Of a stretch of 62,246 bases of DNA, positions 43,057 to 62,246 are shown piece by piece. The stretch is from Gammaproteobacteria bacterium (GTDB taxonomy: Bacteria > Pseudomonadota > Gammaproteobacteria > GCA-001735895). The translations under genes and the position numbers were made by a program. The stretch's first letter is position 1, and every line of letters begins with the position of its first letter. Below the pieces are notes generated by a model. It ran no database searches and had not been told where the DNA came from. It saw only the letters and a program-made list of their open reading frames with translations. The stretch lies in NCBI GenBank assembly GCA_029864185.1, contig JAOTTY010000001.1, positions 1 to 62,246 on the forward strand. The letters are read 5' to 3'.

Positions 43057-43532
43057 GGACTATGAACTGGTTCACTATGGAATTTTCCGGATTAACCTAT
43101 ATATAGCATTGTGTACATCAATACCTCCTCCCCCGAACTATTGATGATATCACGTGGCCAGGGACGGCCTTCCTTTTCTGGCGCCGCGAGGGAATCGAAT
43201 GCGGCGTTAAAATTTCTCGCAAACCGCTCGCATAGTTAAAGGTATTGCTCGCGCTATCGCGAGAAACCTTGCCTTGCATTTGATTCCTTCGCGACATCGG
43301 AAATCCCGATAATCGAACGCCTTGCTCTTGCCGCGCTGGTGGGTCCGGAATTCTTCGACTTGTTGTCATCCTCGCACAAGCGGGGATCTTGTGACGGTGC
43401 CGTCATCTCGATATCCCGCACAAGGGCGTCGCTGCCCCATTCGCAATCAGATTATCGGGGAACATAATACCTATCCTCGCGGTTGGCGAATCCTGCGTTA
43501 GATTGAAAACTGCCTGCCGGGACGGAACCGGG

Positions 43533-45894: not shown

Positions 45895-46033
45895 GATTCA
45901 GGTAAGGTTTTCGCCAACGGGAGATTTTCGGGTATACGGCTGCCAAATACAACATCCGTGGAACAAATCTCAGTAAATACAATCATAAATCCAGATGCTA
46001 CACTCCCATTAGTCCACAAAAACGGAGACAAGT

Positions 46034-47784: not shown

Positions 47785-48429
47785 TTGCTACGATTCCTGT
47801 CCCTTGCTGTTGTCGCATTGGCGATCGCCGGTTGCAGCCAGCTGGGTGGTATTTCCGAAAACGACGAGGCGCAGCGACTCTGGCGGAGCCGGCAGGAGGC
47901 CATGCGACTGGTCGACAACTGGAATATTTACGCCCGCGCCGCGATTACCGTTGAAAGCGGAGCCTACAACATAAGCCTGCGCTGGGAGCGTGACGCGCGG
48001 CGCTATATGATGCTGCTGGATGCGCCGTTCGGGCAGGGTGTATTTCGGATCGATGCCGATGCTGCCGATCGCTACCGGCTGCGGCTGCCGGATGGCCAGG
48101 TCTATGACAACAGTACGCCCGAGGCCCTGCTGGAGGAAGTGATCGGCTGGTCCCTGCCGATCAGCGGTCTCGAGTACTGGATCCGTGGCGTACCCCGCCC
48201 GGGCAGCGAATACACCCGACGCATTTACCAGGACGGTCGCGCGCGATCGATCGGCCAGGACCGCTGGGTAATCGATTACCTCGACTATTTTTCCGATACG
48301 CTGGAAGCACCGTTGCCGCGCAGGATAAAATTGGCGCGGGACGAACTGACGCTGAAGCTCGTGATCGAACGCTGGCAGCTACCCGCAGCCGAGCAGACGC
48401 CGTCGGACCTGTTCCCCGAGTTCAACTAG
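47785..48429 (+). CDS. lolB: outer-membrane lipoprotein receptor LolB (start uncertain)
   Basis: Lipobox LAIAGC-SQ. Position between the TPR gene and ispE. The tracked ATG 47662 would overlap the TPR gene by 109 nt, so TTG 47785 (or CTG 47767) is more plausible. Confidence 0.7.
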   Translation: MLRFLSLAVVALAIAGCSQLGGISENDEAQRLWRSRQEAMRLVDNWNIYARAAITVESGAYNISLRWERDARRYMMLLDAPFGQGVFRIDADAADRYRLRLPDGQVYDNSTPEALLEEVIGWSLPISGLEYWIRGVPRPGSEYTRRIYQDGRARSIGQDRWVIDYLDYFSDTLEAPLPRRIKLARDELTLKLVIERWQLPAAEQTPSDLFPEFN

Positions 48430-48430
48430 C

Positions 48431-49279
48431 ATGTCCGAGGTACTGCGCCTGTCCGCCCCGGCAAAGCTCAACCTGATGCTGCATGTGACCGGGCGCCGTG
48501 ACGACGGTTATCACTTGCTCGAGACCGTATTCCAGTTTATCGACCTGTGTGACCGGCTAGAATTCCGCCTTGGCGACGACTCCCGCATCCGCCGCGAGCC
48601 TGGCGGTACGCCGATCGCCGCTGCCGATGATATTCTGGTCAGGGCAGCGAGCCTGCTGCAGGCGCGCTACGAAGTGAGGCAGGGGGTTAGTATCACCGTC
48701 GAAAAACGAATTCCGATCGGCGGAGGGCTGGGCGGCGGCAGTTCCGATGCGGCCACCTGCCTGCTTGCGCTTAACCGGCTCTGGGGCCTCGGGCTCGCGC
48801 TCGACGAGCTTGCCGCGACAGGACTCGAAATCGGGGCCGACGTCCCGGTTTTCGTGCGCGGCAGGGCGGCCTGGGCGAGCGGCATCGGCGAACAGCTGCA
48901 GAGTATCGAGCTGGATGAACCGGTTTACGTCGTAATCGACCCCGGGGTCGCGGTTTCTACCGCCCAAATATTTGCCGCTCAAGAATTGACACGAAACTGC
49001 GATCCGCTCACAATACGCGCCTTTCTGCGGGGCTCGGGCACCAATGTATGCGAGCCGGTGGTGCGAAACCGGTACCCGGAGGTCGGCGCTGCGATCGACT
49101 GGTTAGGCCGTTACGGGGATGCCAGGATGAGCGGAAGCGGCGCCTGCGTATTCACCGTCTTCGATAGCCTTGAGCTGGCGGAAGAGGTAAAATCGAGGGT
49201 TCCGAAAAAATGGACAGGATTTGTTGCCAGGGCAATGAATCGCAATCCGGTACACCGGCAGCTGGGGCTGCAGGAGTAA
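48431..49279 (+). CDS. ispE: 4-diphosphocytidyl-2-C-methyl-D-erythritol kinase
   Basis: GHMP kinase motif IPIGGGLGGGSSDAA. Confidence 0.93.
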   Translation: MSEVLRLSAPAKLNLMLHVTGRRDDGYHLLETVFQFIDLCDRLEFRLGDDSRIRREPGGTPIAAADDILVRAASLLQARYEVRQGVSITVEKRIPIGGGLGGGSSDAATCLLALNRLWGLGLALDELAATGLEIGADVPVFVRGRAAWASGIGEQLQSIELDEPVYVVIDPGVAVSTAQIFAAQELTRNCDPLTIRAFLRGSGTNVCEPVVRNRYPEVGAAIDWLGRYGDARMSGSGACVFTVFDSLELAEEVKSRVPKKWTGFVARAMNRNPVHRQLGLQE

Positions 49280-49378
49280 AGCGAATTATCGGATCGCCGC
49301 AGGCCCTGCAGTAGTTTGCGGAAAATGGACAGCAACTTGAATCCGGGCAACTGGAATTGCCGATTGAAAGAGAATTAT

Positions 49379-49453
49379 TGGGCCGTCGCCAAGTGGTAAG
49401 GCACCAGGTTTTGATCCTGGCATTCGTTGGTTCGAATCCAGCCGGCCCAGCCA
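49379..49453 (+). tRNA. tRNA-Gln (anticodon TTG)
   Basis: TGGGCCG acceptor stem pairs with CGGCCCA. Anticodon arm is CCAGG-TTTTGAT-CCTGG. T arm has GGTTCGAATCC. CCA is encoded. Close to E. coli tRNA-Gln. Confidence 0.93.
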
Positions 49454-49537
49454 AATTAAGGCGTTGTCAGCCGAGGTAGTGCAGAGCGCACCACCCGGCG
49501 GGCTGGCCACAGGAATTTCAGTAGACGAGAGAATCCG

Positions 49538-50503
49538 ATGATCGGCAGCGTAATCCCGGACGACTTGATGGTTTTCACCGGGAATGCCAATACGGAGTTG
49601 GCGCGTACCATCGTGCGGCATCTCGACATCCCGCTTGGCATCGCCTCCGTTGGTACCTTCAGCGATGGCGAAATCTCGGTCGAGATCGGCGAAAACGTGC
49701 GTGGCAAGGATGTTTTTATAATCCAGCCGACCTGCGCGCCTACCAACGATCATCTGATGGAATTGCTGGTGATGATCGATGCGATCAACCGGGCATCATC
49801 GGACCGGGTAACCGCGGTAATTCCCTATTTCGGGTATGCGCGCCAGGACCGGCGGGTACGCTCGCAGCGGGTGCCGATTACCGCCAAGGTGGTGGCGAAC
49901 ATGCTGACCTGCGTCGGCGTGGATCGCGTGCTCACCGTTGATTTGCACGCGGACCAGATCCAGGGCTTTTTCGAATGCCCGGTGGATAACGTGTATGCAT
50001 CGCCGATCCTGATGGGCGATATCTGGAAGCAGAAGTACCCGGATATGATCGTGGTTTCTCCCGATGTCGGCGGCGTGGTGCGGGCCCGGGCTATCGCAAA
50101 GCAGCTCGACGAGGCCGAACTTGCGATTATCGATAAACGTCGACCGCAGCCGAATATGGCCAAGGTCATGAATATTATCGGTGAAGTAGAAGGCCACAGC
50201 TGTATCATCGTCGACGACATGGTGGACACCGCGGGCACGCTTTGCGAGGCCGCCGCCGCGCTGAAAGGCGAGGGCGCAAAAGGCGTATTCGCCTATTGTA
50301 CCCATCCGGTGCTGTCGGGCAGGGCGATAGAGAACATCGAAAACTCGGTCATGGACGAGCTGGTGGTTACCGATACGATTCCGCTGTCGGCCGAGGCCGC
50401 GGCCTGTACGCGGATTCGCCAGGTATCGGTGGCGGGGATGCTCGCGGAGACGATCCGCCGCGTCCACAATGAAGAATCGGTCAGTTCCCTGTATATGGAC
50501 TGA
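49538..50503 (+). CDS. prs: ribose-phosphate pyrophosphokinase
   Basis: [19 protein letters not shown] and [11 protein letters not shown]. Confidence 0.95.
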
Positions 50504-50555
50504 CGATGGCCGTGTGAGCGGCTTTTTCAGCCCTGTCTGGTCGCAAGACAGGCCT

Positions 50556-50580
50556 CCGTCTGCGGACGGTTTTTTATTTT
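50556..50580 (+). terminator. rho-independent terminator after prs
   Basis: CCGTC-TGCG-GACGG followed by TTTTTTATTTT. It is preceded by a second hairpin, CCTGTCT...AGACAGG, at 50532-50552. Confidence 0.7.
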
Positions 50581-50592
50581 TGGAGTACAGCA

Positions 50593-51312
50593 ATGTCGGA
50601 CCTTATACATTTGAATGCTGAACTGCGCTCTGACTCGGGGAAAGGTGCGAGCCGCCGCCTGAGACACCAGGGCATGGTGCCAGCAATCGTTTACGGCGGC
50701 GAGCGAGATCCCGCCATGATCAGTATCGCGCACAACGAGTTCATCCATGAGCTCGAAAACGAGTCGATCTACACGCAGGTCATCGAGCTGCGCGTCGGCG
50801 ACCGCAAACAGGAAGTGATTCTGCGCGATCTGCAGCGTCACCCGTTCAAGAACAAGGTGCTGCACGCAGACTTCTACCGCATCGACCAGAACAAGCCGAT
50901 CCATATCACGGTGCCGATTCATGTCGAAAATGCCGAGACCTGCGTCGGGGTCAAGCAGGATGGCGGCATGCTCACGCAACTGGTTTCGGAAATCGAGATC
51001 CTGGCGCTGCCGAAAAACCTGCCCGAATACCTGTCGGTGGACGCGGCAAACCTGCATCTCGGCGAAATCCTGCACCTGACCGACATTCTGATGCCGGAAG
51101 GTGTACAGCTGGTTACGTTGGCGCACATCGACGTCGAAGACGAGGAAGAGTTCGACCAGCACAATATCGGTGTGTTGTCGGTGGTCAAGACCCGCGAGGA
51201 GCGGATCGACGAAGAGGCGCCCGAAGCACCTGAGGTCGAGGTGGGCGGAGAAGGTGAAGTCGCCGAAGGTGGTGCTGGAGAGGCTGAAGGCGAAGCAGGC
51301 GACGAAGATTAG
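50593..51312 (+). CDS. rplY: 50S ribosomal protein L25 / general stress protein Ctc
   Basis: GKGASRRLR...VPAIVYGG N-terminus and an acidic C-terminal tail. Confidence 0.93.
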   Translation: MSDLIHLNAELRSDSGKGASRRLRHQGMVPAIVYGGERDPAMISIAHNEFIHELENESIYTQVIELRVGDRKQEVILRDLQRHPFKNKVLHADFYRIDQNKPIHITVPIHVENAETCVGVKQDGGMLTQLVSEIEILALPKNLPEYLSVDAANLHLGEILHLTDILMPEGVQLVTLAHIDVEDEEEFDQHNIGVLSVVKTREERIDEEAPEAPEVEVGGEGEVAEGGAGEAEGEAGDED

Positions 51313-51320
51313 CTCTTTCC

Positions 51321-51905
51321 ATGGCTGCGCTGACCGCAGATATCCGTTTGATCGTCGGCCTCGGTAACCCCGGGGCCGATTACGTTGATACGCGCCATAA
51401 CGCCGGTTTCTGGCTGGTCGACCTGCTCGCGCAGGATCGCGGACTCAACTTTCGTTTCGAAAAACGCTACAACGCGGAAGAGTGCAAGTTCAAAGCAGCG
51501 GAAAGGGACGTATTTTTGCTGAAGCCGCAGACCTTCATGAATCGCAGCGGCCAGTCGGTCGCGGGGCTGGCGCGCTTCTACAAAATCGCGCCGGAACAGA
51601 TCCTGGTGCTGCACGACGAGCTCGATTTGCCGCCCGGCACCAACCGCATCAAGCAGGCTGGCGGTCACGGCGGGCACAACGGATTACGCGACATCATCAA
51701 TCATCTCGGCAGCCGCGAGTTCTTCCGCATCCGTATCGGTATCGGTCATCCCGGGGACAGCAGCCAGGTAATCAACTACGTATTGCACAAGCCATCGGCG
51801 ACGGACCTGAAAGCGATCGAGGCGGCCAACCTCGATACGCTCGAGGTCATGCCGCTGGTGATCGAAGGGCGCATCGACAAGGCGATGCAGGCCCTGCATA
51901 GCTGA
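51321..51905 (+). CDS. pth: peptidyl-tRNA hydrolase
   Basis: [22 protein letters not shown]. Confidence 0.95.
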
Positions 51906-51915
51906 AGGAAATATC

Positions 51916-53007
51916 ATGGGATTCAAATGTGGCATCGTCGGACTGCCGAACGTCGGCAAGTCGACCCTGTTCAACTCGCTGACCAGGGCCGGCATCGCTG
52001 CCGAAAACTATCCGTTCTGCACTATCGATCCGAACATCGGCGTGGTCGAGGTACCCGACCCGCGTCTGCAGCAGCTGGCCGACATCGTCAAGCCGAAGAA
52101 AGTCATTCCCACGACGATGGAGTTCGTCGATATCGCGGGACTAGTCGCGGGCGCGTCCAAAGGCGAGGGCCTCGGCAACCAGTTCCTCGGGCATATCCGC
52201 GAGACCGACGCGATCGCGCAAGTGGTGCGCTGTTTCGAGAACGACGATATCGCGCATGTCAGCAACCGGATTCATCCGCTGTCCGATATCGAAACGATCA
52301 ATACCGAGTTGCTGCTGGCCGACATGGAGTCGATTGCGCGCCAGACCGAGCGCGCCGCGAAGCTGGCCAAGTCCAACGAAAAAGAAGCGAAAGCCAGGTA
52401 TGAATTCATGCAGGCGGTGCAGGCGCATGTCGAGGCCGGTAACGCGGCGCGCGTCTTCGCCGTGACCGATCAGCAGCGCCCGTGGATGAAGGAGCTGCAC
52501 CTGATTACCGCGAAACCGGTGCTTTATATCGCCAACGTGTCCGAGGACGGCTTCGGCAACAATCCCCATCTGGACGCGGTGCGCGAGCATGCCGAGGGCG
52601 AAGGCGCGGAGGTGGTCGCGGTCTGCGCCGCGATCGAGTCCGATATTGCCGAACTCGACGCCGCCGAGGCCGCGGAGTTTCTTGCCGAAATGGGACTCGA
52701 GGAGCCGGGCCTCGACCGCGTAATCCACGCCGGCTACCGGCTATTGCATCTGCAGACCTTTTTCACCGCGGGGCCGCAGGAAGTGCGCGCCTGGACCATC
52801 CGCGTCGGCGACACCGCGCCGCGCGCAGCCGGCAGGATTCATACCGATTTCGAGAAAGGATTCATCCGCGCCGAGGTGGTCGCCTTCGATGACTTCATCG
52901 CCTGCAACGGCGAGCAGGGCGCCAAGGATGCCGGCAAGTGGCGCCTCGAAGGCAAGGATTACGTGATGCAGGAAGGCGACGTGGTACACTTCCGTTTCAA
53001 CGTCTAG
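51916..53007 (+). CDS. ychF: redox-regulated ATPase YchF
   Basis: [15 protein letters not shown], 363 aa, pth-ychF synteny. Confidence 0.95.
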
Positions 53008-53020
53008 GCGACGCACCGGC

Positions 53021-53049
53021 TTGACAGCGCCGGATGTTCAAGCGAAAAT
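53021..53049 (+). promoter_or_regulatory. possible sigma70 promoter for tRNA-Met
   Basis: TTGACA (53021-53026), a 17-nt spacer, then GAAAAT (53044-53049), about 45 nt upstream of the tRNA. Confidence 0.3.
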
Positions 53050-53095
53050 CGCGCGCTCTTCATGGCCGGGCAACCCGGTCGACAGAAAACACGAT

Positions 53096-53172
53096 GGCTA
53101 CGTAGCTCAGTTGGTTAGAGCACATCACTCATAATGATGGGGTCCCCTGTTCAAATCAGGGCGTAGCCACCA
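53096..53172 (+). tRNA. tRNA-Met, elongator type (anticodon CAT)
   Basis: GGCTACGTAGCTCAGTTGGTTAGAGCACATCACTCATAATGATGGGGTC is nearly identical to the first 50 nt of E. coli metT. CCA is encoded. Confidence 0.93.
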
Positions 53173-53188
53173 TTTTCGGACGCTGTGA

Positions 53189-53482
53189 GCACGCCGATTG
53201 CGGCGTTGGATCTCGCAGCGAGCCGCTCGCGTACCAAGACGCCAGCGGCCGGGTGCATAGCTGGTGTCGCGCTTCGTTGCCAGGGCAGCGGTCGCCAGGG
53301 CGCTCGGCACCGGTATCGGCGAGCGCTTCGGCCTCCATTCGGTGCAGGTCGATCACGATGACCAGGGCAGGCCGGTATTGAGTTTCCGAGCGCATGCCGC
53401 GGATCTGATCGCCGAACTCGGTATCGGCAACGCGATGATTTCGCTGTCCATTGAGTTGATTGTCACCATATTTCGAAAGTGA
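53189..53482 (+). pseudogene. holo-ACP synthase (AcpS-like) gene remnant lacking its N-terminus
   Basis: 53264-53482 translates to RFVARAAVARALGTGIGERFGLHSVQVDHDDQGRPVLSFRAHAADLIAELGIGNAMISLS. This aligns with E. coli AcpS residues from about 55 to the end (RFAVKEAAAKAFGTGI...ELGKPRL...). In-frame TAG (53258) and TGA (53186) lie upstream, and no N-terminal half is present. Confidence 0.7.
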
Positions 53483-53980
53483 AAGCCGGCCCGGCGCTGC
53501 CTCATCCTGGCAAATTGGCAGGGTGTGACTGTGTTATACTGGGGACCCGTCGTTGTCCCGCCACCTGTTGCCCTGGCCATCCTTCCAGGTGTCACCTGGC
53601 CGAACAATCTCGGCTTTGGGCATCTCGCGCCCACACTCGCCAATCGGCTATAGCCATGAATGTTGATATGAAACCATACTTGTACGCGCAAAAAATCCGC
53701 CCGCCGGCCGCGTTGTCGTGCCTGCAGAACGGCTCGTTGCACGCCTTTGCGGCAACTGGAATCCCCGCTATTCAGAACCCGGCGACAGCTTATCGAAACG
53801 GTCATGGCTGGCGTGACGGCGCTGGTTTTCAGGAGTCGAGGGCGCGGTGTCTTGCGCTGGAGATGCCCGACAACACCCGCCTCGATCATTCGGCCGGGCG
53901 TCGGGCGAATGATCGGTCCCATGCGCAACGAGCCACTGATTGCGCGGTGACTGGATCTTTCGGTTGCTCGAGGACATCCA

Positions 53981-54793
53981 GTGGACTTTAGGGCCGGCTT
54001 CGAACTGAAGTATCACTTCCCGAATCCGACGCCGGTGGTTTCGATCCTGAATATCCACTTTTCTCGTGTTTCGGACCTGGCGGCGCCAGATCATCTCGTG
54101 CTGGAACCATCCGTCGAGGTCTGCGGCTATCGCGATTCGTTTGGTAACTGGTGCACGCGATTCCTGGCGCCTGCCGGCATGTTTCGGATGTTCTCCGACT
54201 TTACGATCCGGGACAGCGGGCTGCCGGATGCAAGGGTCGACGAACGCCAGACGCCGGTCGAGGAAATCCCTGCGGAAGCCATCGTGTATCTGTTACCGAG
54301 CCGTTTCTGCGACAGCGATCGCTTTCAGGATCTCGCCTGGCAACTTTTTGGCAGTGCGACGCCGGGATCCGGTCGGGTGCAGGCGATCTGCGATTTTGTG
54401 CATCGGCACATCGAGTTTGGTTATCACCATGCACGTGTGAGTCGAACGGCTACCGAGACTTACCAGGAAGGTCGAGGAGTTTGCCGTGACTATGCACACC
54501 TGGCGATTGCATTCTGTCGCGCGTTGAATATTCCCGCACGATACTGCACCGGCTACCTCAGCGATGTCGGCACTCCGCCGCCGTTGCCAGTCGGTGATTT
54601 CGCCGCATGGTTCGAGGCTTATCTCGGTAACGGCTGGTATACATTCGATCCCCGGAACAACGAGCCAAAAATCGGCCGCTTCCTGATTGCCCGGGGCCGG
54701 GATGCGGCGGATGTCGCCATCACCACGACCTTCGGGCCCAATACGCTGGAAGTCTTCCGCGTATGGACCGATTTGATTGCCGACGAGACCTGA
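53981..54793 (+). CDS. transglutaminase-like cysteine peptidase family protein
   Basis: GTG start. Core GRGVCRDYAHLAIAFCRALNIPARYCTGY (catalytic Cys), downstream WFEAYL...WYTFDP (His/Asp region), and an N-terminal Bact_transglu_N-like beta region. Confidence 0.85.
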   Translation: MDFRAGFELKYHFPNPTPVVSILNIHFSRVSDLAAPDHLVLEPSVEVCGYRDSFGNWCTRFLAPAGMFRMFSDFTIRDSGLPDARVDERQTPVEEIPAEAIVYLLPSRFCDSDRFQDLAWQLFGSATPGSGRVQAICDFVHRHIEFGYHHARVSRTATETYQEGRGVCRDYAHLAIAFCRALNIPARYCTGYLSDVGTPPPLPVGDFAAWFEAYLGNGWYTFDPRNNEPKIGRFLIARGRDAADVAITTTFGPNTLEVFRVWTDLIADET

Positions 54794-54936
54794 AATTCCG
54801 GGCTTCAATCCCGGTTGATTCGATGTGGGAGATTTGTGGGGATCAGTCATGTCCTGTTATGCTTGGTTGTGCGCAGTTTGCAACGAGTGCCCAGATAAGT
54901 TATTGAATAATAATTAAAAAATTCTACCTTTCCATT

Positions 54937-54981
54937 CTCATAATGATGGGGTCCCCTGTTCAAATCAGGGCGTAGCCACCA
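54937..54981 (+). repeat. direct repeat: exact copy of the tRNA-Met 3' 45 nt (att-like)
   Basis: CTCATAATGATGGGGTCCCCTGTTCAAATCAGGGCGTAGCCACCA is identical to 53128-53172. Weaker homology continues to about 55042, matching 53173-53234. Confidence 0.95.
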
Positions 54982-55221
54982 TTTTCGGGCTGCTGCGCAC
55001 CACGATTGCAGCGTTGGATTTCGTAACGAGCCGCTCGTGCACGGGTCTTTACAGCTCCCGGCATCGCTGCGAAATCTGCCTTGCACTCGACGTACTCATG
55101 ACGCCCAAAAAGCGTCTGCTCTGTTCAGTGTTGGTTTCGAGCGCGGGTTATTCCGATCAGGGCTGCACGCAACTCGAGTCGCCGGTAGGCGTTTGCCGCA
55201 GAATATCAGGCATTCTTCGGG

Positions 55222-58200
55222 CTAGAATGAAACCGATGCATTGGCACAGTTTGTTACGACGACCGTCTCACAGACTTCGTAGAGATAAGTGCCTGATACG
55301 CTCTTGCCGAGGTTATCCTGCCAGTTGCCGTCGTTCGGCTCATCATTCGCCGCCAGGACACCGTTACGATAAATGTCGACCGTGCTACCGGTATGCCCGC
55401 TCCATTGCAGCGTTACCAGGTTATTGCCCCTGTTCTTTGACGTGGAAAGAATCAGGCTGCGTTCGACCGGGGGTTCGCCGACCGTTATGGTGACCGTCGC
55501 AGAAGAACTGTCACCATTCCCATCGGTGAGCGTGTAGGTAAACGAGTCTGTGCCGATAAAGCCGCCGCTGGGCAAATAGGTGAAAGATCCGTCGCTGGCG
55601 GTGCTGGTCAGACTCCCGCCCGTCAGGCTACTGGTACCCCAGGCCGTGACCGTGGTCGGGGCTTCACCAACCGTATCGTTGGACATGACGTTTTCATTGA
55701 GCACAGTGTCGACCGGAGTCGCGAAGAAATCGTCGGCAGCCTGGGGCAGCAGGTTGGGCTGGGGCTTACCGACCACGATGCTCGTCCCTACCGTGTTCGC
55801 ATTTTCGTCGTAGCTATGGCCGGTTAGCGTAAGCGCGTCGACGCTAAACGTCACGCTGTCGGTATTATTCCTGATATCCAACTTGTTAACGATACAGTCG
55901 CCCGAATTATCAGTCGTGCAACTCGCCGAGCCATTGGCGCCATTACTCCAGGAACCATCCACGAGCACGCCCGCCAGAGCCTGCCCCAGGTCGTCGGCGA
56001 CAGATATCGTGACCGCGGCATCCCAGCGACCCCGCGACGCCTCGGCGGAATCGGCGCTCAGGCCATCGAGGTGCATCGTGACCGCCGTTACCGGGTCGGC
56101 GGTCTGAAAACTCCAGACTGGCCCCAGGGTCGTGCCATAGGGGTTAACCTCGTCGATGCGCCAGTAATAGGTGGTCGAATCGGCCAGGGTGCCGGGATCG
56201 AAACTCGTCGAAGGCTGATTTCCCCGGAATTCCGCGATCCCGGGCGTCGGGTTGATGCCGAAATAGACATCATGGGAATCGGCATCCACGGCCGCGCCCC
56301 AGGCAAGCTGAGTATTCACGTCGACGTCAATGGCACTATCGATGGGCGAGGGGTTGCTCGCGGGACCCGGCGGATTCTCGGAACCGGAACCACCGCCGAT
56401 ACCATCGAGGACCAGCGTATCGATCTGCCAGTAGTTGCCGTTACTGTCACCCCCGGAATCGAATCGCCAACGCAGCATGACCGATGTTTCTCCGGCGAGC
56501 GACGACAGGTCGAGCGCGTATTGAGTCGGGCAGTGAACCACTCCCAGTTGTGACCAGATATTGGTCCAGTTTTGGCCGCCATCGGTACTGGCATCGATGT
56601 TGATGGATTCGAGTAGGTCGAACAGAAAGCAGCTGTCAAAGGTCAGAATCAACCCTGCGTAGCCAGAAAGATCCATGACCGGAGACTGCAGCGATGTCCG
56701 GGTGACCGCGTAGAGGTTATCGACCATGGCGAAATCGCCACTGCCCGGGGTGAAATTGTCGTAGCGATTGCTGCCGGGTTGTGGCGTGAAGATTTCCCAG
56801 TCCTTGCCGTAATCCGTCTGCACGCTCCAGCCGGTCGGCAGTCCGCCGCTGAAATCCACGTTGAAGACATTGTTCGATCCGGTTGGCGGAGCGGGCAATA
56901 CGCTGACGATAAGGGAAAAATCCTGGGCGCCGGGAACCAGTTGCTCGAGTTCGTCCAGTTCCAGTAACTGGCCCTTGTGGGTGACCTCCACCGTGTAGCT
57001 GCCGGCACCAAGCGCATCGGTAACGACCTGTTCGACATTGTCGCGAACATTATCGCCTCGCGTCGCCACCGCGGCGGGCGCGGCCGGGTCGAGTACCCAG
57101 GGCGCGTATTCGGTCTGGCCGACGACGACGCGTAAATCGAGATCGTTGACGAGCATCGAATCGGTCGGATCCAGCGCATAGGGTACCGGGTTTGCCGGCG
57201 GGTCCGCCCAGACGAGCGACGCCCGAATGACCGAACCGGCTTCCAGCACCTGCACCGGTACCGAGAAATTGCCGCCATCGGCCAACGTGTTTTCGATGAT
57301 CTGATGGTCGATGCCGATATGCGCATCGGATATCAGTTCAGCAGCCTTGCGCGTATTCAGCAGACCCCAGCCGTGCCGATAGTCCGGCCCGTCGCCGTCG
57401 CCGGCCTCGTCCGCGGTGTGGATCGCGACCGCTTTTAAACTTGCGGCGCGCAGGAAATTTCCCGGGCCCTTCAGATCTTCATGGTGTTCCTGGAGCAGCA
57501 GCAATGATCCCGTCACGTTGGGCGCCGACATGGAGGTACCCGACGCGATGGCATAGGGCGAAAACTCATCGATCCAGGTCGACAGGAGCAACACGCCGTT
57601 GGCTACCAGGTCCGGCTTGATACGCCCGTCATCGGTCGGCCCCCAGGCGCTGAAGGGCGCCATCGAGACCTGCGCGGGCCCGACGAGCGGCGAATAACCG
57701 CCCTGTATATCGTCCACGGCGCCGATCGTCAGTATGTTTTTCGCAACGCTGTGCAACGCCAGGCAGTCGAAACCCAGCGGCGCGCAATCCGCCGGCCGCT
57801 GCTGCGTCGACGTGCCGAGTGGATTGCCGTTATCATCGACGATGGTATAGGTCTCACCCGGAGCAGGGCCGAAGTCGGTGCGATCGTTGCCCGCCGATTT
57901 GACTACCAGGTAATCGGGCGCCTGATAGGCGATCAGATCCCAGTCCCGGCTAATCTGGCCGTAAAAACCGAATTTCGGATCCTCGTCGCCGCTGCCGCCG
58001 ATCCACCACCATTGGTTCGGCTCGGCATCTCCGATATATACCCAACCGGCGGCCGCGCCGTAAGAATGGTTGGATAGCAGCAATCCGCCGGCCGCCGCGG
58101 TCGCCATTTCGCCGGCATCGTTATTCCAGTCGTAGGCGTGCAGGCCGGCGGCCGAAGCCATGCCTCGCGCCGGCGGGTAGGAACCGGCGCCGACCAGGGT

Positions 58201-58683
58201 GCCGGCAACATGGGTTGCGTGGCCGCTGATTTCGGTTGCGCCGTCAACCTGGGTTACATTGGGCAAATCGCCGTGCAGCGGATGAACCGCGCCGCCATCC
58301 CATTGGCCGACGATAAGGCCTGAACCTTCCAGGTTGAATCCGGCCAGGCCACCGGGCCAGACATCGTCGGTGGATACGGTATCCGCGGCGCCGAGATTAT
58401 TGGTCACGTAGAATATGGGACCCATGCCGGGCACCAGACGCTGAAGTTCGAGAGCTCGGCCGTTTGGCAGGGCGCGCCGCAGCGGAATGCCCGCTCGATT
58501 GGCAAATTCGATAGCCCTGGCCCTTTCCGACTGTGCGCGATCCTGAAATTTTTCGGCGAGCTGCTGTAACTGCTCATCGCCTGCGGCTGACAGCTTGCCC
58601 GTTGCAAGTGCCGCCAGGAGTAGCAAAATTAGCAGGATCAGGCGATGTGGTCTGTCATCGACAGGTCGGTTCCAATACCCCAT
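55222..58683 (-). CDS. secreted multidomain subtilisin-like (S8) serine protease
   Basis: Signal peptide HRLILLILLLLAALATGKLSAAG. Triad contexts: VGQWDGG (Asp), SGHATHVAGT (His), SGTSMSAPNVTG (Ser). C-terminal jelly-roll/MAM-like, Ig/cadherin-like (TDSFTYTLTDGNGDSSSATVTITV) and pre-peptidase-C-terminal-like modules. Confidence 0.9.
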   Translation of the reverse strand: MGYWNRPVDDRPHRLILLILLLLAALATGKLSAAGDEQLQQLAEKFQDRAQSERARAIEFANRAGIPLRRALPNGRALELQRLVPGMGPIFYVTNNLGAADTVSTDDVWPGGLAGFNLEGSGLIVGQWDGGAVHPLHGDLPNVTQVDGATEISGHATHVAGTLVGAGSYPPARGMASAAGLHAYDWNNDAGEMATAAAGGLLLSNHSYGAAAGWVYIGDAEPNQWWWIGGSGDEDPKFGFYGQISRDWDLIAYQAPDYLVVKSAGNDRTDFGPAPGETYTIVDDNGNPLGTSTQQRPADCAPLGFDCLALHSVAKNILTIGAVDDIQGGYSPLVGPAQVSMAPFSAWGPTDDGRIKPDLVANGVLLLSTWIDEFSPYAIASGTSMSAPNVTGSLLLLQEHHEDLKGPGNFLRAASLKAVAIHTADEAGDGDGPDYRHGWGLLNTRKAAELISDAHIGIDHQIIENTLADGGNFSVPVQVLEAGSVIRASLVWADPPANPVPYALDPTDSMLVNDLDLRVVVGQTEYAPWVLDPAAPAAVATRGDNVRDNVEQVVTDALGAGSYTVEVTHKGQLLELDELEQLVPGAQDFSLIVSVLPAPPTGSNNVFNVDFSGGLPTGWSVQTDYGKDWEIFTPQPGSNRYDNFTPGSGDFAMVDNLYAVTRTSLQSPVMDLSGYAGLILTFDSCFLFDLLESINIDASTDGGQNWTNIWSQLGVVHCPTQYALDLSSLAGETSVMLRWRFDSGGDSNGNYWQIDTLVLDGIGGGSGSENPPGPASNPSPIDSAIDVDVNTQLAWGAAVDADSHDVYFGINPTPGIAEFRGNQPSTSFDPGTLADSTTYYWRIDEVNPYGTTLGPVWSFQTADPVTAVTMHLDGLSADSAEASRGRWDAAVTISVADDLGQALAGVLVDGSWSNGANGSASCTTDNSGDCIVNKLDIRNNTDSVTFSVDALTLTGHSYDENANTVGTSIVVGKPQPNLLPQAADDFFATPVDTVLNENVMSNDTVGEAPTTVTAWGTSSLTGGSLTSTASDGSFTYLPSGGFIGTDSFTYTLTDGNGDSSSATVTITVGEPPVERSLILSTSKNRGNNLVTLQWSGHTGSTVDIYRNGVLAANDEPNDGNWQDNLGKSVSGTYLYEVCETVVVTNCANASVSF

Positions 58684-59220
58684 GTGAAAATCCGTTTACT
58701 TTGCAATCCTGGTATTATAGTCGATGTCGAGCTTGCTATTTTTCGTACTAGTTCAAATTCCGCCGCTTTATTCAGGGTTTTTCGATAAGGTGAATTTATC
58801 ACTGGGGAGTATTTGATTGCATGGTAACAGGCCGGTCTCAGAATAGGGCGTAGCCGCCTTGTCCAGTTTGAAGACATATTCCTTTTAATTCAATGAGCTA
58901 CGCTCGGAACTTCAAACGTGATCTGGATGATGGGCTCCAAGGACACGGACGGACTTTTGTCCGATGACTTCGCCGCCCCACTGGTGGCCACATATTTCCC
59001 CGTGAGGATGAGGCCGTGCCGTTCGTACAGGTGGGCTGCCATGCGGGTTCGGGGGGAACAGCTTATATCAATTGAACTGATTTCATGCGTATGATTAAGC
59101 TTGCCGGTGTAGGAAAATTGGAGGAATCAGATGTGCATTGTTGTGTTCAATGGTGCAATCGCTGCAACGGGCGCCCCGTTAAACTATTGAGTAATAGTTA
59201 TAAATTAGTCGCCACATCAT

Positions 59221-59266
59221 ACTCATAATGATGGGGTCCCCTGTTCAAATCAGGGCGTAGCCACCA
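59221..59266 (+). repeat. direct repeat: exact copy of the tRNA-Met 3' 46 nt (att-like)
   Basis: ACTCATAATGATGGGGTCCCCTGTTCAAATCAGGGCGTAGCCACCA is identical to 53127-53172. The upstream CACATCAT also resembles tRNA CACATCA, with a 2-nt indel. Confidence 0.95.
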
Positions 59267-59347
59267 TTTTTTCAATGACCTGGCGCCAGTTTTTAATCTC
59301 CATGGTTTCAACGCCGGATATTATGGGAAACGGCACGGGTAATCTAT

Positions 59348-60850
59348 TTATTCTCTGACCAGTAACTCGACTCGATCCTCGAAATAGGCATAGTTCGCCA
59401 GCGCTATGATTGCCCGGGTTTTAAAATTGTCCCGCAGGTATTGAAAAAAGCGACGCGTACCGCAGCTACGCGGTTGGCCGTTGTCATCGGCGGGCTCTCC
59501 GACAAGCACCAGTTTTTGTCCGGCCCCGATCTGATTCAACAATCGCTCGATGGAAGAATCAGCGGCCTCCGCGGGCAGCCATGCGAGAAAGATTGTATCT
59601 TCCAGGTCGATAGTGGCCTCGGAATGCAGCACTTTCTTCATCGGAGTAAACCGGTGGCGAAGCATCATATCGTGGCAGGATACTTCGATGCCGTAGTACC
59701 TGGCGAGCAGGTATTCCCAGTAGGCGGTACCGGAGCCGAAAGAGGCCAGGCGCTTTCCGGCAAAGGCTGCTATCTCGTCCAGCGCCTGTCGGCATGGCAA
59801 CGACCAGCTGTAAACCGTGGAGTAAATACTGCGCAACGCCGTATCGGATGCCTGTCGGCGATCTCCGAATTGCATCAAGGCATCAGTCCACCATTCGACG
59901 GGGTACAGTTGCGAGGGATCATATTCATCGAAAAACCGGACCAGCGCCTGGTCCACCGCGGTATCCCCATATTGGAAGTCTTTCGCCAGTTCTTTCGCGA
60001 TGTCGCAAGCCTCATCGATGTCGTGATACCGATGATCCTGCTGCACCTGCTCTACCAGTCGCCAGTGTCTTGCAGAGTTGCTCGGCAGCAGGACCTTACC
60101 CAGCTCGAAATGTACCCGGGGACAGGCAGGATTGAGCTCCCTGGATTTCCGGTACAGGCCTAAGGCCTGCGACACTTCTTCCTTCGCGGCCTTGATTTCT
60201 CCCAGTGCGCAGTAAGCGGCCGCATTATTCGGTTCCAGTCGTATGGTTCTCGTCAAACAATTCTCTGCCTCCGGTATCTGTCCCAGAGCCTTGAATGCGA
60301 GTCCGAGGCTGTGCCATATTCCCGCATGCGCCGGACCATCCTGTTCGATGCTTTTGCACAAAGCGACTGCCTCGTCCTGCTGTTGCTGCGATATCAGCGC
60401 ATTAACCAGATTGATTTTAGGTTCAGCAACCCCGGGTAATAGTCTTATCGCGGTGCGGCTGGCTTGTTCCGCCTGCTGCAACAGGCCGGCATCAGCATAA
60501 AGGCTACCCAACGCCAACCATGCCTCTCCATGCTCGGCATCCAGCTCGACCACGGTGCCAGCCTGGGCAATCGCTTCGGCGAGGTTACCCCGCGATAGAT
60601 AAAGTTTGCATAAAGTAAAATGCGCCTGGATATTCGCCGGGTCGAGCCGTACCGCGGTCCTCAGATATTCGATTGCCCTGTTCGTATCACCATGTTCAAC
60701 CCGAATCACGCCCCGCATAAACCAGGCTTTGTCATTCTCCGCGTTTTGTTGGCAGAGCTGCACAAACAGCCGTTCGGCATCGACCAGTTTGCCCTGTCTC
60801 ACCAAAGCGAACGCCTCGGCCATCAAATTCTCGGTCCCGCTTGCACCCAT
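59348..60850 (-). CDS. TPR-repeat protein with an uncharacterised Rossmann-like C-terminal domain
   Basis: The N-terminal ~250 aa are TPR units. The C-terminal ~240 aa contain LASFGSGTAYWEYLLARYYGIEVSCHDM, resembling a class I methyltransferase motif I / acidic post-I residue. That assignment is tentative. Confidence 0.75.
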   Translation of the reverse strand: MGASGTENLMAEAFALVRQGKLVDAERLFVQLCQQNAENDKAWFMRGVIRVEHGDTNRAIEYLRTAVRLDPANIQAHFTLCKLYLSRGNLAEAIAQAGTVVELDAEHGEAWLALGSLYADAGLLQQAEQASRTAIRLLPGVAEPKINLVNALISQQQQDEAVALCKSIEQDGPAHAGIWHSLGLAFKALGQIPEAENCLTRTIRLEPNNAAAYCALGEIKAAKEEVSQALGLYRKSRELNPACPRVHFELGKVLLPSNSARHWRLVEQVQQDHRYHDIDEACDIAKELAKDFQYGDTAVDQALVRFFDEYDPSQLYPVEWWTDALMQFGDRRQASDTALRSIYSTVYSWSLPCRQALDEIAAFAGKRLASFGSGTAYWEYLLARYYGIEVSCHDMMLRHRFTPMKKVLHSEATIDLEDTIFLAWLPAEAADSSIERLLNQIGAGQKLVLVGEPADDNGQPRSCGTRRFFQYLRDNFKTRAIIALANYAYFEDRVELLVRE

Positions 60851-60956
60851 ATATAATCCTGTATTCGTGATATGTTTCGGGAATCAGCTTACCAATCACC
60901 CAGGGAACGATTAACAAGATATCGATCTGACCAAGGTGGGCGCATCTATGACGTTG

Positions 60957-61532
60957 TTACCGGCCCATGCCGGCGAAGCCCATGAAGGTCATTGACAGCA
61001 CGCCCGCCACCATCAATGTCACCGCCGCGCCCTTTGCCACCGACGACACGTCTGCCAGCTCCAGTCTTTCCCTTATGCCAGACATCATCAGCAGTGCCAG
61101 GGTGAACCCGATACCGGCGCCGCTGGCGAAGGCCAGGCTCTGGATAAAATCATATTCCCTGTTCGTCTGGAACAGGGCGACTCCCAGGATTGCGCAGTTG
61201 GTTGTTATTAACGGCAAAAAGATTCCCAGGGTGCGAAACAGGGCGGGGCTGAACTTCTTGATAAACATCTCCACCAGCTGCACCGACGAGGCTATGACGA
61301 CGATGTAAGATATCAGGTGCAGATAGGGGGCATTGATATAGACGAGGGCCAGGTGAATGCCGTAGGCGCTGGCGGAGGCAACCAGCATCACGAAGATCAC
61401 CGCGGCACCCATGCGGAAGGCCGTATCCGTCTTGGTCGAGACTCCAAGGAAAGGACACAGGCCCAGGAAGTAGGCCAGGACGAAATTGTTGATCAGGCAG
61501 GCGTCGATGAAAATCTGCAACGGCGAACTCAT
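60957..61532 (-). CDS. rnfA: Rnf electron-transport complex subunit A
   Basis: Aligns by eye with E. coli RsxA/RnfA: NNFVLAYFLGLCPFLGVS, LGIFLPLITTNCAILGVAL and IRERLELADV. Confidence 0.88.
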   Translation of the reverse strand: MSSPLQIFIDACLINNFVLAYFLGLCPFLGVSTKTDTAFRMGAAVIFVMLVASASAYGIHLALVYINAPYLHLISYIVVIASSVQLVEMFIKKFSPALFRTLGIFLPLITTNCAILGVALFQTNREYDFIQSLAFASGAGIGFTLALLMMSGIRERLELADVSSVAKGAAVTLMVAGVLSMTFMGFAGMGR

Positions 61533-62212
61533 GCGCCCATCTCCTTCGAGGTCTTACCGTCCCCGAATCGGGTCCTCGAAAACTTGTCCGCCCGCTCCCT
61601 GCGTTCGCGTAGCCAGTTGAACAGCAGTAGCCAGGCGCCGAGCACGAAGAAGGCGCCGCCCGGGAGAATCATGATCGACCAGCTGGCGAAGCTGGGACCG
61701 AACAGCGGAATACCGGCAAAGGTGCCGGCGCCCAGCACTTCTCGCACACCGCCCATGCATAAGCAGGCGATGGTAAAACCGCCGCCGAAACCCAGGGCGT
61801 CGAGCATGGATTTTCCGACATTGTTTCGCGAGGCGAAGGCCTCCGAGCGGCCAAGGATGGCGCAGTTAGCAACGATCAGGGCGATGAATGCGCCGAGTGC
61901 CCGATGGACTTCGAGGCTGATCGCCTGCAACAGGTAATCGACCACGGTTACGAAGGTGGCTATGACGAGGATGAAGCAGGCGATGCGCACCTGTTTCGGA
62001 ATCAATTTGCGCACCAGCGACACCACGGTGCTGGCCATGAACAGCACGAATGTCGTTGCCAGCCCCATGGCCAGGGCATTGACTACGGAATTGGTTACGG
62101 CCAGTACCGGGCACAGTCCGAGCAGCATGATGAACACCGGGTTTTCGCGCCAGATGCCGCGCGTCAATATATCCCGGGTTTCGTGATTCGCCTGATTATT
62201 TTCTTCTGTCAT
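61529..62212 (-). CDS. rnfE: Rnf electron-transport complex subunit E
   Basis: Aligns by eye with E. coli RsxE/RnfE: LLGLCPVLAVTNSVVNALAMGLATTFVL, LGAFIALIVANCAILGRSEAFA and ILPGGAFFVLG. Confidence 0.88.
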   Translation of the reverse strand: MTEENNQANHETRDILTRGIWRENPVFIMLLGLCPVLAVTNSVVNALAMGLATTFVLFMASTVVSLVRKLIPKQVRIACFILVIATFVTVVDYLLQAISLEVHRALGAFIALIVANCAILGRSEAFASRNNVGKSMLDALGFGGGFTIACLCMGGVREVLGAGTFAGIPLFGPSFASWSIMILPGGAFFVLGAWLLLFNWLRERRERADKFSRTRFGDGKTSKEMGA

Positions 62213-62246
62213 GAGTGGTTCACCTTGCTAAGGCATCCAGATTCTT
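62209..62246 (-). CDS. 3' end of the upstream gene (probably rnfG); partial at the window edge
   Basis: An open frame ends in a TGA that overlaps the rnfE ATG (ATGA). Only 12 codons are visible, so identity is inferred from operon logic alone. Confidence 0.3.
   Translation of the reverse strand, partial: ESGCLSKVNHS

Follow-up and report, generated by a model that had tools for sequence, protein, structure and literature searches.

Integrase-less islets behind a gammaproteobacterial tRNA-Met gene, probable CIME-like remnants of tyrosine-integrase elements

In P4-like islands that target tRNA genes, the crossover takes place at the anticodon loop, and in 2002 Williams reportedly distinguished sublocation classes of tRNA-targeting islands. 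The closest described systems for tandem units bounded by attachment (att) sites are the cis-mobilizable elements (CIMEs), whose definition and tandem accretion at att sites have been described, for example, for ICESt1 and the CIME of Streptococcus thermophilus (PMC5704250). In the tycheposons of Prochlorococcus, successive integrations at one tRNA gene leave partial tRNAs and fragmented integrases behind (Hackl et al., 10.1101/2020.12.28.424599). Here, we analyzed a stretch of 62,246 nt from an uncultured gammaproteobacterium (NCBI GenBank assembly GCA_029864185.1, contig JAOTTY010000001.1; hereafter, the window), in which an intact tRNA-Met gene is followed by two displaced copies of its 3' half and, bounded by these copies, by two small blocks of genes (islet 1, 1.8 kb, and islet 2, 4.3 kb). 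Most probably, with a probability that we put at roughly 0.78, successive tyrosine-integrase recombination at the core of this tRNA-Met gene, followed by loss or absence of the integrase, has left two non-autonomous CIME-like islets and an integrase stump.

The tRNA-Met core and the arms of the element family

The intact tRNA-Met gene closes the conserved run lolB-ispE-tRNA-Gln-prs-rplY-pth-ychF, and the DNA inserted behind it is flanked by direct repeats of its own 3' part (Table 1). This 45-nt core, CTCATAATGATGGGGTCCCCTGTTCAAATCAGGGCGTAGCCACCA, reaches from the anticodon loop (CTCATAA) to the CCA and occurs exactly three times in the window, always on the forward strand, with no occurrence expected from shuffled sequences. 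The original prediction had described exact tRNA 3' copies starting at the anticodon loop; both displaced cores do start there and all three cores are exact, but the third begins at 59222 and not, as had been given, at 59221. Comparison of the window with itself revealed that the islets share just their ends, namely 57-58 nt at 83% identity after copies 1 and 2, and 42 nt at 79% identity before copies 2 and 3. The latter are the AT-rich tracts already noticed to the left of these copies, which are real and mutually homologous and represent the proximal part of a longer arm of ~118 nt (the P arm).

To place these ends in a wider family, contigs from Joint Genome Institute (JGI) metagenomes were scanned with the 33-nt 3' part of the core, which gave at least 120 loci (L-numbers below label relatives and public contigs compared with the window; counts of displaced cores and arms cover the matches listed). 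A total of 38 displaced cores were found, each starting exactly at the anticodon loop, and the same P arm, recognized by its tail motif, stands directly before 36 of them. By blastn, the two P arms of the window match more than 40 metagenome stretches at 73-86% identity, and an alignment of 34 arms resulted in the ~118-nt consensus. The far end of the arm contains a paired direct repeat, TGTRGG N4-6 TGKRGG, adjoined by a second pair (GTTATGC, twice). The paired repeat was detected in 22 of the 32 testable arms before displaced cores, and within the window it occurs in the two P arms only (0.36 occurrences expected). In other loci, it was observed 19 times in the P position and seven times in the P' position, always on the forward strand. 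Moreover, the repeat has variants, TGTAGGAG and TGTGGGCA, between which both copies switch together by subfamily, in P and P' alike.

In integrase-bearing loci, the first ~65 nt after the CCA form the P' arm, which extends into the 3' end of the integrase gene, where the paired repeat of the P arm recurs. The attP of the family comprises a ~118-nt P arm, the 45-nt core and a ~65-nt P' arm. This P-core-P' arrangement is the layout of a lambda-type attP, and the repeats would be the protein-binding sites. The islets have the P-arm motifs in common with integrase-bearing members, and the original prediction, which read the repeats as tandem att cores of tyrosine-integrase elements at the tRNA, agrees with the finding that both islets end in the P arm of a family whose relatives carry an integrase.

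Some further observations concern the flanks of these arms. The homology of the islet 2 P arm to that of L116 reaches back to 59035, and the ~65 nt between the L116 P arm and a neighboring open reading frame (ORF; L116 1497-1973, reverse strand) are shared with window positions 59035-59100 (83% identity), while the ORF itself is absent from the window. Judged by eye only, this ORF resembles the zinc-binding N-terminus of an IS91-family transposase. In addition, a second class of post-CCA flank (L098, L100, L102, L115, L146, L159 and L164) starts with TTTTTTCAATGAC and continues with another paired repeat (GGGGTTACGC, twice); no integrase follows it in the two loci inspected (L098 and L102). 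This class may represent another arm-specificity subfamily.

Table 1. Features of the tRNA-Met array and of related sequences in the 62-kb window
Feature	Position	Strand	Evidence
F copy, intergenic, upstream of prfA, no adjacent tRNA	43175-43308	+	R1 80.9 bits, E=3.6e-19
Intact elongator-type tRNA-Met(CAT)	53096-53172	+	ARAGORN; Rfam tRNA 70.7 bits; exact pattern match
Core copy 1, last 45 nt of tRNA-Met, attL-type junction	53128-53172	+	Exact pattern match
F1, diverged or truncated F copy directly 3' of CCA	~53173-53302	+	R1 25.8 bits, E=8e-5 (53174-53302); 83% identity to F2 over 57 nt
AcpS (holo-ACP synthase) pseudogene fragment, islet 1	53264-53482	+	PDB 3qmn, E=3.2e-9, residues 54-116 of 129
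170-aa ORF, islet 1 (coding status doubtful)	53479-53991	+	No Pfam match; called as gene in L001/L084
Transglut_core (cysteine-protease-like) protein, 270 aa, islet 1 cargo	53981-54793	+	Pfam 1.2e-23
P arm of islet 1, conserved ~118-nt right end	54820-54936	+	73-84% identity to more than 40 metagenome stretches; sharp homology start near 54820; 34-arm consensus
Paired arm-type repeat TGTGGGAGATTTGTGGG in islet 1 P arm	54824-54840	+	
Core copy 2, displaced tRNA-Met 3' half, anticodon loop to CCA	54937-54981	+	Exact match
F2, complete F copy	54982-55115	+	R1 121.3 bits, E=1e-29
Secreted-type S8 serine protease, 1153 aa, Big_9 and cadherin-like domains, islet 2 cargo	55222-58683	-	Pfam Peptidase_S8
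P arm of islet 2	59100-59221	+	Arm match by blastn; 34-arm consensus; paired repeat
Paired arm-type repeat TGTAGGAAAATTGGAGG in islet 2 P arm	59108-59124	+	
Core copy 3	59222-59266	+	Exact match
Decayed type-B P' arm / L002-type integrase 3'-end remnant	59267-~59345	-	Translation; alignment to L002

Integrases beside the core and integrase-less units in other loci

Relatives of the window were found through Pth. In L002 (87% Pth identity), a 360-aa tyrosine integrase is encoded on the reverse strand, with its stop codon 26 nt after the same syntenic tRNA-Met (Phage_integrase, 4e-15; phrog_1, 4e-44; Phage_int_SAM_5 and Phage_integrase are its only Pfam matches), and is followed by an AlpA-like protein and a replication initiator. 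Integrases of this kind adjoin tRNA-Met in L093, L112, L190 and L201, and L217/L218, where synteny is intact all the way from prfA to ychF, likewise have one at tRNA-Met. In L007, which is more distantly related, this site is occupied by a P4-type integrase. The original prediction had advised seeking a cognate P4-type integrase next to another tRNA-Met; in relatives, an intact integrase adjoins the same syntenic tRNA in L002, L217 and L007.

No intact integrase was identified in either islet or elsewhere in the 62-kb window. The earlier statement that no integrase exists in any frame holds for intact ORFs (tblastn), but a decayed integrase 3' end directly follows core copy 3. Its translation, ITRAVSHNIRR*NHGD*, corresponds to ITRKISYNSPTLKVVGD* in L002. 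The first 35 nt are well kept, starting with the 13-nt TTTTTTCAATGAC and continuing with TAATCTCC at the offset seen in L002, and blastn matches extend to 59301-59302 in L002, L093, L201 and L203. In global alignments with six type-B arms, the score of this region was reached by 0 of 2000 shuffles, or by 0-58 of 2000 when the first 13 nt were left out. The remnant ends just before a tetratricopeptide repeat (TPR) gene at 59348. This alignment of a P' arm and integrase end after copy 3 points to the decayed left end of a third, integrase-bearing element. Searches of the window by tblastn for further remnants of the L002 integrase, the AlpA-like protein or the replication protein gave chance-level matches only.

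The exact 45-nt core is absent from IMG/VR, where the relatives of the integrase have 37-42% identity and no tRNA nearby. Three close integrase homologues come from GCA_024449465.1, GCA_004566115.1 and JGI; none is from GCA_029863465.1. As a side observation, close homologues of the L002-type integrase (60-99% identity; proteins P0121-P0138) were encountered almost only on contigs of 1.2-7 kb, as expected if their flanks are repeated within communities.

Units without an integrase are the rule in this element family. We examined 13 core-to-core intervals of at least 400 nt in the listed metagenome loci, 1.0-9.8 kb long and including one that separates two full tRNA-Met genes; none of the 13 contained an L002-type integrase. 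Their cargo includes HipA, Fic/Doc, a CAAX protease, a regulator-hydrolase fusion, a nucleotidyltransferase/helix-turn-helix (toxin-antitoxin) pair and a cyclase. An L002-type integrase match lies beside five of the 21 type-B flanks with at least 1.3 kb of downstream sequence; four are intact, and L203 has fragments only. The same architecture as in the window, with F (a structured repeat described below) at the start and a P arm at the end, was also detected in a 2.4-kb unit of L207 that carries Fic and in the 3.3-kb unit of L099/L169, which encodes a cyclase and a dehydrogenase-like protein. The L099/L169 unit stands behind the tRNA in one contig and behind the P arm-core of another element in the other.

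The F repeat, the cargo and the competing explanations

The original prediction had noticed that the homology of copies 1 and 2 continues for about 60 nt beyond the CCA. This homology is real; it is not, however, an extension of the att core, but belongs to a separate repeat of ~134 nt, here named F, with complementary ends (TTTTTCGCC...GGCGAAAAA) and an imperfect long nested hairpin. RNAalifold on 13 copies gave 27 pairs, 13 of which show compensatory double changes. Pairing is kept in 94.9% of cells, compared to 82% in shuffles and 28-44% with the partners slid, and the covariation score (0.32 versus 0.10) was reached by 0 of 500 shuffles. A covariance model built for F, R1, recognizes three copies in the window (Table 1). 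The clear homology of F1 ends at ~53235, and by blastn it matches F copies in L107, L129, L207 and others. F2 is 70-84% identical to the F copies of L003, L116, L144, L107 and others, in alignments of ~129-152 nt. The third copy has syntenic counterparts in L002, L003 and L005 and lies 10 kb from any tRNA-Met, which indicates that F is a dispersed structured repeat and not a part of the att site. Outside the window, F copies were detected in L003, L107, L116, L129, L141, L142, L144, L181, L186, L207 and L209. F follows an intact tRNA or a displaced core directly in about 20 loci among the matches listed, and is also dispersed in intergenic DNA. It is sometimes tandem, each unit then including no more of the tRNA than its last ~23 nt (L107, and, with short cores, L003, L116 and L144). 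A search of positions 48000-62246 against Rfam revealed no family for F at E<=1, the only matches being the tRNA and one spurious antisense match.

Several weaker resemblances were observed around these repeats. There is a possible further F copy at 45903-45979 on the reverse strand. The segments 58838-58858 (TCAGAATAGGGCGTAGCCGCC) and 55152-55174 (TTCCGATCAGGGCTGCACGCAAC) weakly resemble the last ~21-23 nt of the tRNA, with marginal statistical support, and may be decayed short cores such as those found after F in other loci. Just left of the F copy upstream of prfA, positions 43130-43175 (CTATTGATGATATCACGTGGCCAGGGACGGCCTTCC) loosely resemble the tail of a P arm plus a decayed tRNA-Met 3' end; the region is kept at the same syntenic spot in several relatives (L002 1745-1790; L146 ~2640-2680) and may be an ancient att scar. 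Two other interpretations of F were rejected. Translation of the reverse strand through core and F in three copies showed that frames are not conserved, so F is not the end of a gene. Nor is it, as judged by eye, the missing N-terminus of AcpS, since F is dispersed, has its own structure and occurs without an AcpS gene.

Could the partial copies be the residue of a tandem tRNA-Met array, or of slippage or unequal crossing-over, without any integrase? Two full tRNA-Met genes ~1 kb apart do exist in some metagenome contigs (L137), and the tandem units of F with the last 23 nt of the tRNA in L107, L003, L116 and L144 would fit such an origin. Such an array had been put forward as the condition that would overturn the island interpretation, on the expectation of degenerate 5' halves upstream of the copies. 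No similarity to the tRNA 5' half was found upstream of core copy 2 or 3; a conserved P arm stands there instead. The absence of any 5'-half remnant, together with the exact anticodon-loop boundary in dozens of loci, excludes a tandem tRNA array. Moreover, the same non-tRNA arm precedes nearly all displaced cores, an integrase stands beside the core in relatives, and the 17% divergence of F1 from F2 contrasts with identical cores, so that core and F have not recently been duplicated in place. We regard this class of explanation as extremely improbable.

Another route that needs no integrase is RecA-dependent (Campbell-type) insertion, in which foreign DNA, circular or linear, would enter by way of homology in core and F. 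The unit repeated at copies 1 and 2, i.e., the core and ~57 nt of F, is longer than an integrase core, as this route would predict, and one strain-level pattern may hint at a recombination breakpoint at the tRNA. In L085 (ENA ERZ27296337, contig k141_2029729), which differs from the window at 24 bases, 23 of these lie in 52515-53034, i.e., in 520 nt of the ychF end and the spacer, mostly at third-codon spacing, and the 9.2 kb from the tRNA onward, which include the array, differ at one base. This pattern could reflect homologous recombination with a breakpoint at the tRNA, or else a contig end that is a chimera of strains. Core copy 3, however, has only the 45-nt core in common with the other two and is followed by a P' arm and not by F, and all displaced copies begin on their left at the anticodon loop, the hallmark of a site-specific crossover. 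RecA-dependent insertion is thus considered decidedly improbable as the source of the array.

With regard to the cargo, all three identities proposed in the original prediction (an AcpS-like remnant, a transglutaminase-like gene and a 1153-aa S8 protease) were confirmed by PDB or Pfam matches. The AcpS fragment corresponds to the C-terminal ~60% of the protein and lacks ~50 codons at the N-terminus. Its Pfam ACPS match is weak (E=0.0045, below the family cut-off), and the catalytic-region motif ISLSHE reads ISLSIE in the window fragment. Gene calls differ between assemblies: the 170-aa ORF is called in L001/L084, and in L083 only a 72-aa gene is called, at the position of the AcpS fragment. 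The annotation of GCA_029863465.1 has the fragment as a 72-aa gene. Homologues of the S8 protease number in the thousands in gammaproteobacterial metagenome-assembled genomes (MAGs), with up to 77% identity, and most of the best 120 lie at 50-67%. That the S8 protease travels with att sites was rejected, because the 77% and 67% homologues (L212 and L214) have no core, P arm or F. A small integrase beside the L214 homologue is unrelated to the L002 integrase. By blastn and tblastn, no homologues of the AcpS fragment, the 170-aa ORF, the transglutaminase-like protein or the S8 protease were detected in the 120 metagenome loci or 80 genome loci with att context.

The same array was found in four assemblies at 99.75-99.96% identity, including NCBI GCA_029863465.1 and two ENA metagenomes, and short Logan contigs of a fifth sample agree with the window at every base and terminate within the repeats. 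More distantly, at 87% Pth identity, the site carries the integrase island in L002, and F with a degenerate short core only in L003; the contig of L005 ends inside tRNA-Met. An identical arrangement in all relatives, which had been named as evidence against mobile islets, is thus not what these genomes show, and a clean presence or absence of either islet was not seen among them either. One Logan contig (L213, ERR10503097, 4429 nt) carries a 96.5%-identical copy of the S8 gene and next to it a P arm that is cut off after ~40 nt, a stretch in which the paired repeat is still present. From there the contig runs into unrelated DNA with neither core nor F; at the opposite end of the gene, similarity to the window is lost 22 nt after the stop codon.

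Several of these findings weigh against successive integrase recombination as the source of the array. P' arm-type repeats were not found at the left end of either islet, where F stands instead, so that simple deletion of the integrase from a canonical element is insufficient to explain them. The G+C content of the islet cargo is host-like. The S8 homologues with examined contexts (L212, L213 and L214) are not att-linked, and those at 67-77% identity lie in ordinary chromosomal surroundings. Among the near-identical assemblies, no excision product, empty site or single-islet presence/absence was seen.

Nevertheless, successive tyrosine-integrase recombination remains the favored reading, and it may be pictured as follows. 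The ychF-tRNA-Met junction would be an integration hot spot for this element family, where a crossover in the anticodon-loop part of the core inserts the element behind the tRNA. Insertion would rebuild the tRNA and leave the displaced 3' half at the far end of the element, and repeated rounds would stack such units. The window would then preserve two of them, each with its P arm and exact core but no integrase, and, after the last core, a third, more decayed trace consisting of the P' arm and the integrase 3' end. The units appear to be incapable of movement on their own and fixed in this species. In canonical recombination, whatever lies right of the core comes from the incoming element. The att site of each unit would then have been P arm-core-F, an arrangement identical to the attR junction of a chromosome in which F follows the tRNA. 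This suggests an origin by lambda-bio-type aberrant excision, with a hybrid P-core-flank att, by crossover in shared core and F, or by independent insertion of F at the CCA.

The islets may also be active satellites, consisting of P arm, core and F, for whose movement in trans another part of the genome, or a helper element, would supply an L002-type integrase. The perfectly identical cores, the paired arm-type repeats kept in both P arms, the recurrence of integrase-less F...P units with unrelated cargo (L207; L099/L169), the two placements of the L099/L169 unit, and the occurrence of close integrase homologues on very short contigs, as expected of repeated or mobile DNA, would all fit such satellites. 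Yet no integrase is encoded in the window, and L213, with its P arm cut after 40 nt, looks like decay and not like clean excision. Since the left ends have no P' arm-type sites, the integrase is missing and polymorphism is absent from near-identical assemblies, mobility in trans, though possible, is less likely than fixation, and we consider active satellites unlikely. A bolder and rather improbable proposal would treat tRNA-Met as an integron-like platform for gene capture, with integrase-less cassettes of 1-10 kb that each end in a ~163-nt P arm-core site and are moved in trans by an L002-type integrase. Such an integrase, encoded by a minority of arrays only, would insert, shuffle and excise the cassettes; chromosomal genes such as those for the S8 protease and the transglutaminase-like protein might be recruited via hybrid att sites (P arm-core-F), with F as a functional left end or a restored tRNA trailer.

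Significance and comparison with known systems

One tRNA gene in an uncultured gammaproteobacterial lineage gathers small blocks of accessory genes, here a protease and a transglutaminase-like protein, and in relatives toxin-antitoxin, Fic and regulator genes. The family's recombination site is now defined precisely enough for annotation in MAGs. It is worth noting that its att repeats break short-read assemblies, as seen in the L005 contig ending in the tRNA, in the Logan contigs and in the 1.2-kb integrase contigs, which is a warning for work on MAGs. The high share of integrase-less units raises the question of mobilization of mini-islets in trans, and F offers a separate lead as a candidate new structured RNA or a family resembling miniature inverted-repeat transposable elements (MITEs).

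Dispersed hairpin repeats of the enterobacterial repetitive intergenic consensus (ERIC), repetitive extragenic palindromic (REP) and MITE-like kinds are known, as are the tyrT-linked rtT repeats of Escherichia coli, which are 178 bp long and contain a tRNA end. F is similar to them in its hairpin with complementary ends, its dispersed intergenic copies and its tandem units with the last ~23 nt of the tRNA, but its sequence is unrelated as far as tested. Hybrid att sites are known from the lambda-bio and lambda-gal transducing derivatives. By analogy, an att site composed of P arm, core and host flank would explain why the units start flank-like (F, AcpS fragment) and end in a P arm; the islets of the window differ in having no phage functions, and the likeness is purely inferential. 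The resemblance to integron cassette arrays is one of layout only, namely small, promoter-less-looking units each ending in a conserved site: there is no IntI, and in place of an attC there is a tRNA-derived core with a lambda-like arm.

With P4-like islands, the locus shares the repeat from anticodon loop to CCA, an integrase beside the tRNA in complete members and direct-repeat arm motifs that resemble binding sites, whereas the L002-type integrase has no DUF4102 arm-binding domain as found in P4 integrases. As in tycheposons, the complete members combine a tyrosine integrase with small modules for integration and replication and with cargo, and older elements are pushed inward. The host group (uncultured Gammaproteobacteria), the integrase family and the target tRNA are different, and the att-bounded units are mostly very small (1.2-10 kb) and have no integrase. 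CIMEs offer a further comparison. The units of the window are att-flanked, have lost the integration genes and stand in tandem at the 3' end of the target gene, as results from successive integration and decay; cores are kept on both sides together with the P arm, while the P' arm is not retained. They depart from CIMEs in that the complete relatives encode, beside the integrase, an AlpA-like protein and a replication initiator, with no conjugation or mobilization module known for the family, and in that the left att side of the islets is the unrelated structured repeat F. As to derivation from such elements, the P arm of the islets is shared with integrase-bearing members, but no internal homology to any complete element was found. 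The islets are a known kind of genome scar that calls for no new mechanism and leaves the current view of tRNA-linked islands in place.

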